From: a virus
Length of the DNA stretch: 11,108 bases
Direction: 5' to 3' (one strand)
UHGV virus genome: UHGV-0246901
This document shows, piece by piece, positions 1,338-11,108 of this stretch. Both the position numbers and the translations under genes were made by a program. Positions within the stretch are counted from its first letter, which is position 1. Each line of letters starts with the position of its first letter. Under the pieces are notes generated by a model. It was given only the letters and a program-made list of their open reading frames with translations. It made no database searches and was not told the origin of the DNA.

Positions 1338-1363
1338 GGAAGCCTCTTCGGAGGCTCCTTTTT
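1338..1363 (+). terminator. rho-independent terminator T1
   Basis: GC-rich stem AGCCTC(1341-1346)/GAGGCT(1351-1356) with TTCG tetraloop, followed by CC and T5 (1359-1363), immediately after the stop of 889-1329. Confidence 0.7.
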
Positions 1364-5307: not shown

Positions 5308-5350
5308 AACAAAAAAGGCTCCCGTAAAAAGGAGCCTTAAACTTTATTTT
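5305..5350. terminator. bidirectional rho-independent terminator between convergent operons
   Basis: Stem AAGGCTCC(5315-5322)/GGAGCCTT(5331-5338), 8-nt loop. On the minus strand it is followed by a long T-run (complement of A-rich 5305-5314), a strong terminator for the gene ending at 5344; on the plus strand followed by AAACTTTATTTTT (weaker). Confidence 0.7.
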
Positions 5351-5715: not shown

Positions 5716-5910
5716 TTATTTCTCCCCCTTAAAAGCTTTTTCTAAGTTATCTACGAACTCATCATCAATAGGTGTGTCTGTTTTACTCGCAAGGTATCTT
5801 GCAAGCCTAAAGAACACTTTCTCAATCATGTATTCACTTAGAAGGGATAAAATGAGTTTCCAGAAGAAGCTACCTAGATTTTTTAGAAGAATTGCTAGGA
5901 TTGTAGGCAT
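5716..5910 (-). CDS. small membrane protein (64 aa); possible holin-like
   Basis: Hydrophobic segment ILAILLKNLGSFFWKLILSLL and acidic C-terminus; SD GAGGTG ~5 nt upstream; first gene after a sigma70-like promoter. Confidence 0.55.
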   Translation of the reverse strand: MPTILAILLKNLGSFFWKLILSLLSEYMIEKVFFRLARYLASKTDTPIDDEFVDNLEKAFKGEK

Positions 5911-5953
5911 TTAATCACCTCATCAGCCAAGATGGTGAGAATACCCATAAAGA

Positions 5954-5982
5954 ATATTAACACCATCTTAACAATCAGTCAA
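5954..5982 (-). promoter_or_regulatory. sigma70-like promoter on minus strand (TTGACT, 17-nt spacer, TAATAT)
   Basis: Reverse complement of 5977-5982 is TTGACT and of 5954-5959 is TAATAT, 17 nt apart; lies in the 64-bp gap between the tail-fibre gene and the small membrane-protein genes. A 7-bp inverted repeat GATGGTG(5931-5937)/CACCATC(5961-5967) overlaps it. Confidence 0.5.
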
Positions 5983-5989
5983 CAAGGGA

Positions 5990-8380
5990 TTAAGCAGTTC
6001 TTACCCAAGCCATTAACTTGTAGAACTGGTTAGTAACACTAAATGCTGAACCAGAACCTGTACCACCAGTGTTACCACTAACTGTATGAGTGTGAGCACC
6101 GATACCTACAGAGTGGGTGTGAGCACCAGTGTTACTTGTAGTACCAGACCATGTGTGTGTATGGTTACCAGTTGTGTTAGTGTTAGGGAATTTGTTATCA
6201 GTTCTGTCAAGCCAGTCAAGAGTTCTTGTCTTATTGTTACCAATAGTGGTATATCCGTACTGAGCATCACCACCATTAACCAATAGCAGACCTAAGTGGT
6301 GAGCGTGGTTACCAGCAGCACTTGTTGTACCACTTACAGAGTGAGTATGACCACCAGTGCTATTAGTGTTCTTCGTACCATAATCAAAAGATGAAGTGGT
6401 AGCAGAGAAACTATGGGTGTGTGAAGGCAGATTACCAACAGCTAACGTCACAGAGTCTGAACCACCTGTTGTAGCAACATCTGAACCGTTTGCTGCTGCA
6501 ATCCTGATAGTTCTACCAACACCATTGTTCAGGTACGTCCAAGTTAACCCAGGAAGTGCTGTATTAGGGTCAACGTTGCTGTTAAACCACGTTACAATAC
6601 CTACTGGATAGATTTTATTAAGGTCTGTAGAGTCACTTACTGCCTGTGCAATCTTCTGGTCAGTTTCAGCTTTAGTGTATGCACCAATATCTGAAGGGGT
6701 TGGTTTAAAGGCAGTTGTATAAATCTGTGCTTCTCCGGCATAGTCACCATTTTTGTCATAGGCATAGGTAAATGTTGCCAGTCCATTTGAGCCATACACA
6801 AAAGAGATTCCTCTTGCATGTGCAGCAGTCTTATTAGAGTGAGCAACATGAATTGCCAATTCTTTCAGTCCACTAGTAACCGCATTGTTTCTGACAAAAC
6901 CTGAATATCCAAGATTAAAACCTGAAGGGTTTTCAAGGTTATCTACAGAGACAGTCATTAAGGATTGGTTTAATAACTGAGTTTTAACAAAATATCTAGC
7001 ATCTAAGTTAGACCAATCAGAAGGTTGAACTTGACCAGTAATGGTTAGATTCTTATTAGCCTTAATCGCTGAAGGCATAAGGGTAATTTGAGTCCCAGAG
7101 TAGCTGTTGTTTAAGGCTACATCAGTAGAATTTGTGCCACCTACACCTACCCACCACCTAGATACATTCGCAGTATCAACACCACGGATATATTGTGGCT
7201 GCCCCTGTGTCAAGTTCCTCAATACTAGACCTTCATTGTTAGATACAATAGTCTGCACATTTGTAAAAGTGTTAGCCACATTAACCTTAGCAAGATTACT
7301 CAAAGTAGCTGCTGGAATATATCTAGAGTCGATATTAGCCCAATCAGAAGGTTGGACTTGACCAGTGATTCTAAAATTATTGTTTACTGCGACATGCCCA
7401 TTGTCAAGTCTAAGATAAGAACCATACACATAGTTGCTGATGAATACAGCAGGTGTATTATCACCATTTCCTACATACCACTTACCAGAACCATCATTAG
7501 CTTCGGCTTTAACGTATAGTGCAGCATTTGCTACAGTATTTTTCAACCTTAAAGCAGCACTATCACTGATAATAAGTAGGTTTCTGCTAAACGTGTTAGT
7601 GCCAGTGAAATTGTTATTGGCAGCTAACTGTGCAAATCTCTGATTAGCTGCTGTCTGAGTAAAGTATCTAGCATCTAAGTTAGAGAAGTCAGAAGGTTGC
7701 ACTTGACCATTGATTGATAAAGACCTATTAAAAGAAGCAGCCGTGCCTAGAGTGAGGATGGAACCTAGTTTACTCTCGATTTGAACATCAAGACTACCCC
7801 TAATCAGGTTCCCAATAGCCCAAGTTTTTTCATTGCTTGCATCCCTACCTACAATAGCAGAGTATGCACTATCCCCACTCACAGGAGATTTTAGTGTTAA
7901 CTGTTCCCCATTTGCTACAATGGTCTGTTTAGAGTTAAATGTGTTTGTAACAGCAAGCCTTGCGTATCTTGCATCATTCTCTTCATTAGTTCTCATCCCA
8001 AGTTCATTAGGACTTGGCTTATTCAGAGTATGATAAACAGTTGCCGACCTTGAAGCGTCTGCAATAGTTAGTTTAAGGCCGTTTGCGTTGATTTTAAAAG
8101 TCTTTAAAACATCCCCAATAGTAATCTCAGAAGAGCCTGTAGGGTCAAAGACTGCCTTGCCACCGTAAAGTAACTTAACAATTCCTAAGTCACCCTTCAT
8201 AGTGCTACCAACAATCTGAACAAATCTTTCAAGTTTAAAAGATGCTAAGAAGTCTTGATAGGTCATTCGACGGTCTTCATCACCCAGCATTTCAGGTCTC
8301 TTTTTAACTCTGACATGAAGAAGGTCATCTGAATGGATTGTATCGATTGAGTTTAATTCACTCAACTTGTAATCTGCCAT
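5990..8380 (-). CDS. tail fibre protein (796 aa) with collar-like domain and His-X-His repeats
   Basis: Three internal repeats each ending GQVQPSD(W/F)xN(L/I)DxRY; C-terminal segment resembling the phage tail-collar domain (LPGLTW...GNLPSHTHSF); 6-7 HxH motifs (HTHS, HAHH, HTHT...); C-terminus ...MAWVRTA shared with the 395-aa paralogue. Confidence 0.85.
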   Translation of the reverse strand: MADYKLSELNSIDTIHSDDLLHVRVKKRPEMLGDEDRRMTYQDFLASFKLERFVQIVGSTMKGDLGIVKLLYGGKAVFDPTGSSEITIGDVLKTFKINANGLKLTIADASRSATVYHTLNKPSPNELGMRTNEENDARYARLAVTNTFNSKQTIVANGEQLTLKSPVSGDSAYSAIVGRDASNEKTWAIGNLIRGSLDVQIESKLGSILTLGTAASFNRSLSINGQVQPSDFSNLDARYFTQTAANQRFAQLAANNNFTGTNTFSRNLLIISDSAALRLKNTVANAALYVKAEANDGSGKWYVGNGDNTPAVFISNYVYGSYLRLDNGHVAVNNNFRITGQVQPSDWANIDSRYIPAATLSNLAKVNVANTFTNVQTIVSNNEGLVLRNLTQGQPQYIRGVDTANVSRWWVGVGGTNSTDVALNNSYSGTQITLMPSAIKANKNLTITGQVQPSDWSNLDARYFVKTQLLNQSLMTVSVDNLENPSGFNLGYSGFVRNNAVTSGLKELAIHVAHSNKTAAHARGISFVYGSNGLATFTYAYDKNGDYAGEAQIYTTAFKPTPSDIGAYTKAETDQKIAQAVSDSTDLNKIYPVGIVTWFNSNVDPNTALPGLTWTYLNNGVGRTIRIAAANGSDVATTGGSDSVTLAVGNLPSHTHSFSATTSSFDYGTKNTNSTGGHTHSVSGTTSAAGNHAHHLGLLLVNGGDAQYGYTTIGNNKTRTLDWLDRTDNKFPNTNTTGNHTHTWSGTTSNTGAHTHSVGIGAHTHTVSGNTGGTGSGSAFSVTNQFYKLMAWVRTA
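6990..7716 (-). repeat. three dispersed ~50-bp direct repeats inside the 796-aa tail-fibre gene (about 6990-7045, 7314-7370, 7661-7716)
   Basis: Core CCAATCAGAAGGTTGAACTTGACCAGT (plus strand) recurs at ~335-bp spacing; first and third copies also share ATCTAGCATCTAAGTTAGA. They encode the GQVQPSDW..RY ends of three tandem protein repeats. Confidence 0.7.
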
Positions 8381-8399
8381 TATAAATTTTCCTCTTAAA

Positions 8400-8417
8400 A
8401 GGGGCTATAAAGCCCCT
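8400..8417 (-). terminator. intercistronic stem-loop between the two tail-fibre genes (possible attenuator or RNA-stability hairpin)
   Basis: On the minus strand AGGGGC-TTTATA-GCCCCT followed by TTTTAAGAGGAAAATTTATA-ATG; only a short T-run, so at most a partial terminator; the SD for the 796-aa gene lies just downstream. Confidence 0.4.
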
Positions 8418-8426
8418 GTAAAGAAA

Positions 8427-9614
8427 TTAAGCTGTTCTCTGCCATACATACAGGACGAAGGATGGCTGCTCAATGTTGAAAGCTTGTCCACCACCAACAC
8501 TATTAGTGTTCCCGCTATGCGTATGCTCAGAAGAAGAAACTGTTACAGTGCCATTGTGTGTATGTGAACCAATACCAACTGTGTGGCTGTGAGCACCAAT
8601 ACCAACCGTATGGTTGTGGTTACCAGTTGTATTAGTGGTAACACTGAAAGAGTGGGTGTGTGCACCAGCTACTTCACAGACAGCATCTGCTGAGTACCAT
8701 GATTGGTCATTCCTTGTAGACCAAACCATTGCAGGTCTTTCCGATAAACCACCACCTGCTTCATAGGTCAATCTGTGGTTGTGAGCACCAGCAGAACTTG
8801 TTGACCCACTACCAACATGGTTATGGTTACCAGTCGTGTTAGTGGTCTTAGTTCCATAGTCAAAAGAGTTAGTAGTCTTAGTTCCATAATCAAAAGCTGA
8901 AATTGACACCGTTGCATTATGAGTATGACCACCACCACTAAGAGACACAGAGTGAGAGTGTTGAGGCATGTTATTAACTGACAAAGTGACAGTTGAAGCA
9001 CCAAATACAGAACCTGCTGGTCTTGTGTCAGAGTCATAACCAACCAATGCTCTACCCTTTGAAACTAACTCCCAAGTACCTCCACAAATTAAATATGTAG
9101 AGGGGTTTGCAGAGTTCATGGAAAGATGGATAGTACCTACTGGATAGGAAGCCTGAACAGCCTTGTACAAGTTATTTACTGCTCTTGCTGTAGCGTACTT
9201 ATCTGCATCCTCATTATAAAGGTTAGATGTTGTCCAGTTCTGAACATTACTCAATCCTACCTGTGCCTTAGTTGTATTGTGTGGGTTGCTCTTGTCCTGA
9301 ATATGCTGTTGAACAAGGTTATTAACCTCTTCTGAAGACATAATCTGTAGATTTGCTCTTGCCTCAGCTACATTAACAACATCTGATAAGTTATTTGCAG
9401 CAACTAACTGAAGAGCATTAATAACATTATCTAAACCAATTTGTGTTTTAGTAACACCATGAGGGTTATTTCTTAGGCTTGAGTGTGGAGCAAGTAATTG
9501 CTCAAGAGTACATCTCTTATCCTCAATACCTTGCTTAAGATGGAAGATATCACTAAGGTCAATTGGTAAGGCTGCTTGAGGCAAGGCACTAATTTGAATT
9601 TCACCTACCGCCAT
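8427..9614 (-). CDS. tail fibre protein (395 aa), paralogue of the 796-aa protein
   Basis: N-terminal repeats NPHGVTKTQIGLDNV / NPHNTTKAQVGLSNV (phage tail-fibre repeat-like); collar-like segment ICGGTWELVSKGRALVG...NNMPQHSHSVS; nine HxH motifs; C-terminus ...VWQRTA; SD AGGAG ~8 nt upstream. Confidence 0.85.
   Translation of the reverse strand: MAVGEIQISALPQAALPIDLSDIFHLKQGIEDKRCTLEQLLAPHSSLRNNPHGVTKTQIGLDNVINALQLVAANNLSDVVNVAEARANLQIMSSEEVNNLVQQHIQDKSNPHNTTKAQVGLSNVQNWTTSNLYNEDADKYATARAVNNLYKAVQASYPVGTIHLSMNSANPSTYLICGGTWELVSKGRALVGYDSDTRPAGSVFGASTVTLSVNNMPQHSHSVSLSGGGHTHNATVSISAFDYGTKTTNSFDYGTKTTNTTGNHNHVGSGSTSSAGAHNHRLTYEAGGGLSERPAMVWSTRNDQSWYSADAVCEVAGAHTHSFSVTTNTTGNHNHTVGIGAHSHTVGIGSHTHNGTVTVSSSEHTHSGNTNSVGGGQAFNIEQPSFVLYVWQRTA
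8841..8900 (-). repeat. in-frame 30-bp tandem duplication within the 395-aa tail-fibre gene
   Basis: 8841-8870 and 8871-8900 match at 26 of 30 positions and encode a tandem SFDYGTKTTN repeat; the 796-aa paralogue has a single FDYGTKNTN. Confidence 0.8.
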
Positions 9615-9616
9615 TA

Positions 9617-11108
<1,492 letters not shown>

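Follow-up and report, generated by a model that had tools for sequence, protein, structure and literature searches.

What does a GC-rich hairpin do when it stands, with only a few U residues behind it, between two tail-fiber genes that are read from the same strand? This question is raised by a spacer of 46 nt (positions 8381–8426) in an 11,108-nt stretch of the virus genome UHGV-0246901, the whole of which is hereafter called the window. A first-pass annotation, made from the letters of the window, had suggested that this hairpin could be a partial terminator and that it could set the ratio of the two fibers, or else that it could be a 3′ stability hairpin for the upstream message. Here, we took advantage of the large number of related phage records to ask what is conserved in the spacer, how the hairpin compares with known terminators and stabilizing stem-loops, and which reading of it best accounts for its distribution.

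The Tail-Fiber Module and Its Single Gap

A megablast search with positions 5900–9700 returned 243 phage records, the best of which are 94–96% identical over the whole query, and the records listed are either annotated as Felixounavirus or named as Escherichia, Shigella, or Enterobacteria phages. These matches identify the window as the baseplate and tail-fiber module of a Felix O1-like myophage (Felixounavirus), with its genes on the minus strand. The two genes on either side of the spacer had been taken for tail-fiber genes in the first-pass annotation, an assignment with which the Pfam domains (Gp10_C in the 395-aa product, gp37_trimer in the 796-aa product) and the GenBank relatives agree. 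In the cryo-EM paper on phage Bas63, which belongs to the same genus, the short and long tail fibers are gp26 and gp27. Within the window, the hairpin occupies the sole intergenic gap of the baseplate-to-fiber gene run. The features to which we refer below are as follows:

8427..9614, minus strand: short tail fiber (STF) gene, 395 aa (ORF list, translation, Pfam Gp10_C, “tail fiber protein” in KhF1 and KhF2)
8418..8426, minus strand: 9-nt pyrimidine-rich spacer UUUCUUUAC from stop codon to stem (sequence, fold, per-site diversity, RNAalifold outer helix)
8400..8417, minus strand: stem-loop AGGGGCU-UUAU-AGCCCCU (5′ arm 8417–8411, loop 8410–8407, 3′ arm 8406–8400)
8397..8400, minus strand: short U-run of four U, the first pairing with A8417 (of the 8 nt beyond the last G-C pair, 4 are U)
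8391..8396, minus strand: Shine–Dalgarno (SD) sequence AAGAGG of the LTF gene, separated by 3 nt from the stem and by 10 nt from the ATG
5990..8380, minus strand: long tail fiber (LTF) gene, 796 aa (ORF list, Pfam gp37_trimer, “tail fibers protein” in the GenBank records of KhF1 and KhF2)
5954..5982, minus strand: sigma-70-like promoter match TTGACT-N17-TAATAT (−10 preceded by TG), immediately past the LTF stop codon, where no hairpin stands
5315..5338, both strands: strong two-way terminator with a 9-bp stem, UUUUUUGUUUUA on the minus strand (terminator scan), ending the fiber/small-ORF unit
1341..1356, plus strand: canonical terminator AGCCUC-UUCG-GAGGCU then CCUUUUUAAA, with a UUCG tetraloop, after ORF 889–1329

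Past the fiber genes, the promoter match at 5954–5982 is followed by two small ORFs (64 and 123 aa), and in Sf14 the latter is annotated as a putative holin. The terminator at 5315–5338 lies between the convergent fiber/small-ORF unit and thymidylate synthase; it corresponds to t79/t80 of Felix O1 and is annotated in both KhF1 and KhF2.

On the minus strand, the gap between the STF and LTF genes measures 46 nt, the STF stop codon TAA being located at 8429–8427. The pyrimidine-rich stretch that follows contains both a −35-like hexamer, TTTACA (8422–8417), and a UUCUU (8425–8421) that pairs weakly with the SD. The stem comprises 7 bp, including five G-C pairs, and closes a 4-nt loop; the hairpin alone has a predicted free energy of −12.3 kcal/mol (ViennaRNA), and the centroid structure, to which a weak outer helix is added (8425–8421 with 8396–8392), one of −16.5 kcal/mol. 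Between stem and SD stands UUU (8399–8397), and a 10-nt spacer AAAAUUUAUA leads from the SD to the LTF ATG (8380–8378). The SD itself is well conserved, with an invariant G at −11 and an AGAGG that is kept in all clades. The succession of hairpin, UUUU, and SD that had originally been read from the letters holds as given, but the stem has 7 bp and a 4-nt loop, the inner U-A pair being formed; likewise, the four U of the reported tail are present (8400–8397), but the first of them belongs to the stem, through its pairing with A8417.

Chance is excluded as the source of the 8400–8417 hairpin. Indeed, the window has one copy of the pattern GGGGCT-N(2–8)-AGCCCC, of which 200 shuffles gave none, and perfect hairpins with 7 bp or more, five or more of them GC pairs, are present twice, against 0.17 expected. 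Perfect GC-rich hairpins are limited to three in the 11 kb (1341–1356, 5315–5338, and 8400–8417), all intergenic and located just after stop codons, and the first two are obvious terminators with 6–7 U.

Conservation of the Stem in Three Genera

To follow the hairpin beyond the window, 46 loci were gathered from IMG/VR, metagenomes, and GenBank, from which the removal of duplicates and short contigs left 39 distinct regions of 646 nt; the metagenome scan contributed 14 loci only, all with known hairpin types. One metagenome contig, CYGL01002262.1 (locus L031, positions ~100–148), was set aside since each of its homopolymers is one base shorter (GGG/CCC, TTT), a shortening that most likely reflects a homopolymer sequencing error rather than a compensatory deletion.

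The hairpin is found in all Felixounavirus, Mooglevirus, and Suspvirus loci, and the stem pairs in the 39 distinct loci of these three genera, in which the LTF N-termini are ~61% identical. Over 23 distinct sequences from the same genera, the seven inner pairs are 100% paired, and the changes observed in the stem amount to one double change from A-U to G-C and to G-U wobbles affecting two pairs, one within the Felix O1 clade and the other at locus L035. Among the 32 Felixounavirus loci, the stem has a nucleotide diversity of 0.004, as against 0.35 for the loop, which takes nine different sequences, 0.09 for the rest of the spacer, and 0.16–0.27 for nearby third codon positions. Judged by these comparisons, the stem is under purifying selection and the loop evolves neutrally. 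Taken together, the constrained stem, the neutral loop, and the wobble pairs favor an RNA structure: the G-U wobbles keep RNA pairing and break DNA symmetry, which points to RNA. The locus has one trait expected of a stabilizing stem-loop, a stable 3′ stem-loop conserved as a structure, with 100% pairing in three genera and a loop that is free to vary.

Since the stem is constrained and the loop is neutral, proteins that read the loop are excluded; a loop-read protein-binding hairpin, of the boxB/N or of the coat-protein type, was rejected in view of the nine loops in 32 Felixounavirus loci and of the lack of any matching Rfam family. The Rfam scan, which covered 8200–8600 with E-values up to 10, returned noise only, including a frameshift match (E = 8.8) on the wrong strand. 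A recoding signal was rejected as well: no X XXY YYZ heptamer precedes the stop codon, a TAG within the hairpin closes the LTF frame, and a read-through of the TAA would end after 22 codons, out of frame.

As for the U-run, it varies by clade: the window's clade and Suspvirus have UUUU, the Felix O1 clade has UUUCU, and Mooglevirus has just one U, with a stem edge and tail that read AGCCCCU-AGAAAGAGG or AGCCCCU-AUAAAGAGG and count 1–2 U in 8. What is conserved is hence the stem and not the U-run. Because Mooglevirus keeps the stem with essentially no U-run, canonical termination cannot be the conserved function, and a structural one on the RNA is more likely.

Terminators Predicted at the Same Gene Boundary

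The hairpin has a counterpart in the literature. In Table 2 of Whichard et al. 2010 (PMC3185647), the Rho-independent terminators predicted in Felix O1 by TransTerm/MFOLD include t76 (51080..51100, gggggctgtacagccctcttt, −12.5 kcal/mol), and the same paper calls unknown how transcription passes such sites. By position and sequence, the hairpin of the window is the ortholog of t76, and as such an element already known as a predicted terminator. A “Rho-independent terminator” is also annotated in the GenBank record of KhF2 (KT184314; 66789–66804), on a hairpin identical to that of the window. The t76 and KhF2 elements share with the window the gene boundary, the GGGGCU/AGCCC stem, the 4-nt loop, and the short U-run followed by the SD; t76 differs by a G-C and a G-U where the window has an A-U and a G-C, and by its tail, UUUCU instead of UUUU. 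Both t76 and the KhF2 feature are software predictions (TransTerm, MFOLD) and not experimental results. The KhF1 record has the same stem and tail without a terminator annotation, and that KhF2 is annotated and KhF1 is not marks the terminator prediction as borderline. The KhF2 feature is entered on the strand opposite to the genes, and the extra features that the depositors of KhF1 and KhF2 supplied, such as a “cos site” inside the long-fiber gene, an “attP”, and a “P22 C1-binding site”, look speculative.

More distant Ounavirinae have a roomier arrangement. In the phages Pectobacterium Wc4, Erwinia phiEa21-4, Yersinia P778, and Hafnia SarahDanielle, the short-fiber gene is followed by an intergenic region of ~87–145 nt, in which each phage carries a canonical terminator hairpin (−12 to −23 kcal/mol, 6–7 U in 8) and, downstream of it on the same strand, a sigma-70-like match; the RefSeq record of phiEa21-4 annotates a terminator after the short-fiber homolog. 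On this basis, the STF/LTF boundary is a terminator position throughout the Ounavirinae. The three compact genera lack a promoter here and have a truncated U-tract, and their hairpin lies only 3–5 nt ahead of the following SD. Which layout came first is a matter of assumption, as the ancestor could have had the compact arrangement or the one with terminator and promoter.

Weak Terminator Features and Required Read-Through

Intrinsic terminators combine a GC-rich stem of ~5–14 bp and a loop of 3–8 nt with a U-rich tract of 7–9 nt. The fiber hairpin has the former (7 bp, 4 nt, −12.3 kcal/mol) and lacks the latter, its tail UUUUAAGAG holding 4 U in 8, and a terminator scan of the window that required at least 5 T in 8 did not call the 8400–8417 site. 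Strong intrinsic terminator sites have been associated with the bubble-edge motif GC(U)7RU (Battaglia et al. 2026 preprint); read against this motif, the fiber hairpin departs from it in having CC at the stem edge and no purine-U after a 7-nt U-tract. The canonical terminators that we compared (lambda tR2, the 5315–5338 site, and those of phiEa21-4, Wc4, P778, and SarahDanielle) resemble the fiber hairpin in their GC-rich stem of about −12 kcal/mol, their 4-nt loop, and their location just after a stop codon; they differ by 6–7 U against 4 U in 8 and by GC against CC at the stem edge, and, unlike them, the fiber hairpin has no purine-U at the release site, lies 3 nt from the next SD, and has no promoter downstream. 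A terminator acting on the plus strand was rejected, the plus-strand tail UGUAAAGA having 2 U in 8.

Translation may weaken the site further. Only 9 nt separate the STF stop codon from the stem, and with a stop codon 8–9 bp away, the translating ribosome represses lambda tR2 almost completely; a precedent for ribosome gating is found in PMC4824070. With regard to promoters, scans yielded no match from the STF stop codon to the LTF start, and none for the minus strand over the final 300 nt of the STF gene. An LTF promoter within the spacer was rejected on the same scan and because any start would fall after the SD. As the hairpin is 3 nt from the SD with no promoter between them, the LTF gene needs read-through.

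Published data on the two products come from Felix O1, in which RT-PCR assigns ORFs 76 and 77 to the same late class and in the virions of which gp77, the downstream product, is the top-scoring protein (31% coverage, 9% for gp76), and from the structure of Bas63, in which both fibers are seated on the baseplate and zero to six long fibers are seen per particle. The latter structure gives no reason to expect fewer long than short fibers. A literature search returned no 3′-end or transcript data for any Ounavirinae phage, and searches for Felixounavirus or Felix O1 transcriptomes turned up nothing usable, the PhageExpressionAtlas paper making no mention of the group and phage K1B4 being a Kagunavirus.

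These results bear differently on the two halves of the first-pass terminator proposal. As a description, “partial terminator” is reasonable, given the t76 and KhF2 predictions, the canonical terminators of the distant genera, and the read-through that is required. The idea that the hairpin sets the fiber ratio is not supported: the U-run, on which termination depends, is not conserved (UUUU, UUUCU, or a single U) while the stem is kept, the Bas63 structure suggests no need for fewer long fibers, gp77 tops the Felix O1 virion proteins, ORFs 76 and 77 are in the same late class, and just 9 nt lie between stop codon and stem, a spacing comparable to that at which lambda tR2 is repressed. The first-pass alternative, a 3′ stability hairpin, agrees with a stem that is conserved where the U-run is not.

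A Family of Inverted Repeats in the KhF2 Genome

The arms of the hairpin recur elsewhere in the same kind of genome. In the close relative KhF2, GGGGCT-N(2–24)-AGCCCC has 11 occurrences where shuffles give 0.02, and the hexamer shows a three-fold enrichment:

KhF2 18951–22637, 28866–28881, 33638–33653, 16178–16224, and 18313–18329; window 8401–8416: GGGGCT/AGCCCC inverted-repeat sites

Six of the KhF2 copies have loops of 16–17 nt and coincide with promoter matches of the form TTTACA-N17-TAnnnT; these long-loop copies correspond to the 57-bp repeats of the Felix O1 paper. The tetraloop copy between rIIA and rIIB exactly fills the spacer of TTGACA-N18-TAAAAT before rIIB, a promoter match of 11/12. 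Further tetraloop copies stand between other co-directional genes, and some have the layout of the fiber copy, in the order stop codon, 9 nt, stem, U3–4, and SD: from prs to nadV, the stop codon is followed by 9 nt, GGGGCU-UCCA-AGCCCC, AUUUUGAGAGAG, and ATG, and in one version the arms are swapped and UUU-AGGAGG-ATG comes next. Unlike the GGGGCU family, most strong terminators of KhF2 have UUCG loops. The flanks of the fiber hairpin, CTTTACA and AGCCCC-N4-AAGAG, are common to the long-loop promoters of KhF2, and the fiber hairpin has no −10.

Given that early promoters of this genome carry the same arms, a role at the DNA level or in the binding of a factor is conceivable. One broader reading is that the fiber hairpin is a member of a genome-wide GGGGCU/AGCCCC family in Felix O1-like phages, in which tetraloop copies (stop codon, ~9 nt, stem, U3–4, SD) and long-loop copies around the −10 of early promoters would either be read by a phage factor or act as ribosome-gated attenuators. 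We regard this as rather improbable; if it were true, such attenuators would terminate only when the upstream gene is untranslated, and the family would be a dedicated regulatory system rather than generic punctuation.

A Probable Leaky, Terminator-Derived Stem-Loop

On balance, we lean toward reading the hairpin as a leaky, terminator-derived RNA stem-loop, in which the LTF gene would be expressed by read-through and selection would act on the stem, likely as a 3′ barrier or punctuation mark and not as a ratio switch. In this scenario, the hairpin would be, on the late tail-module transcript, a weakened form of the intrinsic terminator that marks the STF/LTF boundary across the Ounavirinae. 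The spacer would have been compressed to 46 nt, with the 7-bp GC-rich stem kept, only four U left, and the LTF ribosome-binding site adjoining it. At most a minority of RNA polymerases would stop at the hairpin, and this fraction would probably be cut further by the ribosome that finishes the STF gene 9 nt upstream, so that the LTF gene would be transcribed by read-through from the baseplate/short-fiber message. What selection keeps is the stem itself, the most likely role of which would be that of a structural 3′ barrier or of punctuation on the upstream message. That termination occurs here, to what extent it does, and that the stem stabilizes the message are what we infer. The conservation of the stem in sequence, beyond its pairing and at a depth where synonymous sites are saturated, counts against this reading, being more than a plain structural hairpin needs.

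Parallels exist among known systems. T7 T-phi, which follows gene 10, is a leaky intra-operon terminator in a phage structural operon. Another case is t64 of Felix O1, within the structural gene region (PMC3185647), at a position that KhF2 annotates too. Like these two, the fiber hairpin lies inside a long late operon whose downstream genes need read-through; the difference is that T7 T-phi and t64 follow very abundant products and have full U-tracts, whereas the two fibers show no evident need for unequal amounts. As to stabilization, the REP elements at malE-malF are intercistronic stabilizer stem-loops, and intercistronic hairpins of T4 are reportedly the subject of Tuerk et al. 1988. With them, the fiber hairpin has in common a stable intercistronic stem-loop in which the stem matters and the loop does not, and which could shield the upstream message from 3′ exonucleases; it differs in being neither a REP sequence nor a UUCG tetraloop, and its stabilizing role here is putative.

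Alternative Explanations

Some readings retain the RNA structure and dispense with termination. The hairpin might be purely an RNA-stability or processing element that blocks 3′-to-5′ exonucleases after downstream endonucleolytic cuts, or that caps the 5′ end of a processed LTF mRNA, in which case the half-lives of the two cistrons would differ. This is a possible, though on the whole unlikely, explanation: it accounts well for the retention of the stem where the U-run is lost (AGCCCCU-AGAAAGAGG in Mooglevirus), for a loop that is free to vary, as it would be in a purely structural barrier, and for a position in the only gap of the baseplate-to-fiber run of the window, but it leaves aside the U3–4 that follows the stem in the window phage and at three similar KhF2 sites, where the U-run seems not to be accidental, as well as the full terminators at the same boundary in distant genera. 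There is also no evidence of processing, and the stem of the fiber genes is too short for RNase III. Translational coupling, in which the pyrimidine tract after the stop codon would pair with the LTF SD around the hairpin and the SD would be freed only when a ribosome finishes the STF gene, seems improbable to us. The minimum free energy and centroid structures do pair 8425–8421 with 8396–8392, overlapping the AAGAG of the SD, RNAalifold also puts an outer helix over GAGGA, and the 5′ strand of this helix is within ~10 nt of the stop codon, inside the footprint of a terminating ribosome. However, the outer helix contains many G-U pairs and contributes just ~4 kcal/mol; its columns pair in 87% of cases, against ~78% in controls in which the 3′ partner was slid by 1–3 columns, controls that still pair this often because a U-rich tract faces a purine-rich one; and, reading the sequences, the register differs between clades and much of the Mooglevirus SD stays free. 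For an SD-occluding outer helix, the covariation test gave no better result than the slid controls, which weighs against it.

Other readings place the function at the DNA level, in the past, or in a complete separation of the two transcripts. As a DNA element of the GGGGCT/AGCCCC inverted-repeat family, the site could be a promoter remnant or be bound by a phage regulator rather than act as an RNA signal. The TTTACA upstream and the AGCCCC-N4-AAGAG downstream, as in KhF2 family promoters, argue for it, as do the 11 KhF2 copies (0.02 in shuffles), of which the six long-loop copies and the rIIA-rIIB copy sit at promoter matches, and a pattern of conserved half-sites with a variable center that would suit a dimeric DNA-binding protein. 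We nevertheless hold it to be quite improbable: the site has no usable −10, as TTTAAG and TTTTAA are missing A2 and T6 and the scan reports none; transcription starting 7 nt beyond would begin past the SD, leaving the mRNA with no ribosome-binding site; spacings of 4 and 16–17 bp between half-sites are difficult to attribute to a single protein; and the G-U wobbles and the A-U to G-C swap fit RNA pairing and not DNA symmetry. The related candidate of a sigma-70 promoter that has the hairpin in its spacer was rejected: of the two hexamers, which should stand 16–18 bp apart, it has the −35-like TTTACA, but TTTTAA, TTTAAG, and TTAAGA all fail as a −10. The view that the hairpin has no present function, being an ancestral terminator in decay whose palindromic form may have been preserved through template-switch correction of quasi-palindromes, would explain why the U-run is visibly eroding across clades and why the compact spacer resembles a deletion derivative of the terminator-plus-promoter arrangement; a stem diversity of 0.004, against 0.16–0.35 at neutral-like sites, and a stem kept in three genera in which the LTF N-termini are only ~61% identical make it very improbable. 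Finally, an efficient terminator might end the baseplate/STF transcript and the LTF gene be expressed from a promoter of its own inside the end of the STF gene, in line with the distant genera, which do part the two genes by a terminator and a promoter-like site. This we judge extremely improbable, since a promoter upstream of the hairpin would still need read-through, the last 300 nt of the STF gene have no minus-strand promoter match, the U-run is weak, and the long fiber is abundant in virions.

Implications for Annotation and Fiber-Module Exchange

In terms of biology, a leaky, terminator-derived stem-loop would be nothing fundamentally new: weak intra-operon terminators and stabilizer hairpins are well known, and the element would be ordinary operon punctuation. 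For annotation, the site is a clear case of a hairpin with few U that was labeled a terminator though its U-tract is below threshold and is gone in a sister genus. The junction also has some modest practical relevance. Felix O1-like phages serve in the typing of Salmonella and E. coli, in biocontrol, and in therapy, and their host range is altered by swaps of fiber modules; since the LTF gene appears to depend on read-through of the hairpin, engineered junctions should retain the 46-nt spacer intact.

From the perspective of such swaps, the surroundings of the spacer are uneven. An island of low diversity (0.07–0.10) extends over ~7980–8480, taking in the final 100 nt of the STF gene, the spacer, and the opening 400 nt of the LTF gene, and is flanked by highly variable receptor-binding regions, in which diversity rises to 0.49 (8480–9080) and 0.56 (5990–7980). 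A conserved island between variable regions suits homologous exchange of fiber modules. Diverged direct repeats are also present in the C-terminal His-x-His needle regions of both fiber genes, between 6050–6395 and 8490–8901 (22–53 nt, 60–86% identity); the Felix O1 paper (PMC3185647) had already described comparable repeats in genes 76 and 77. Recombination between these His-x-His-region repeats would delete the STF/LTF junction.
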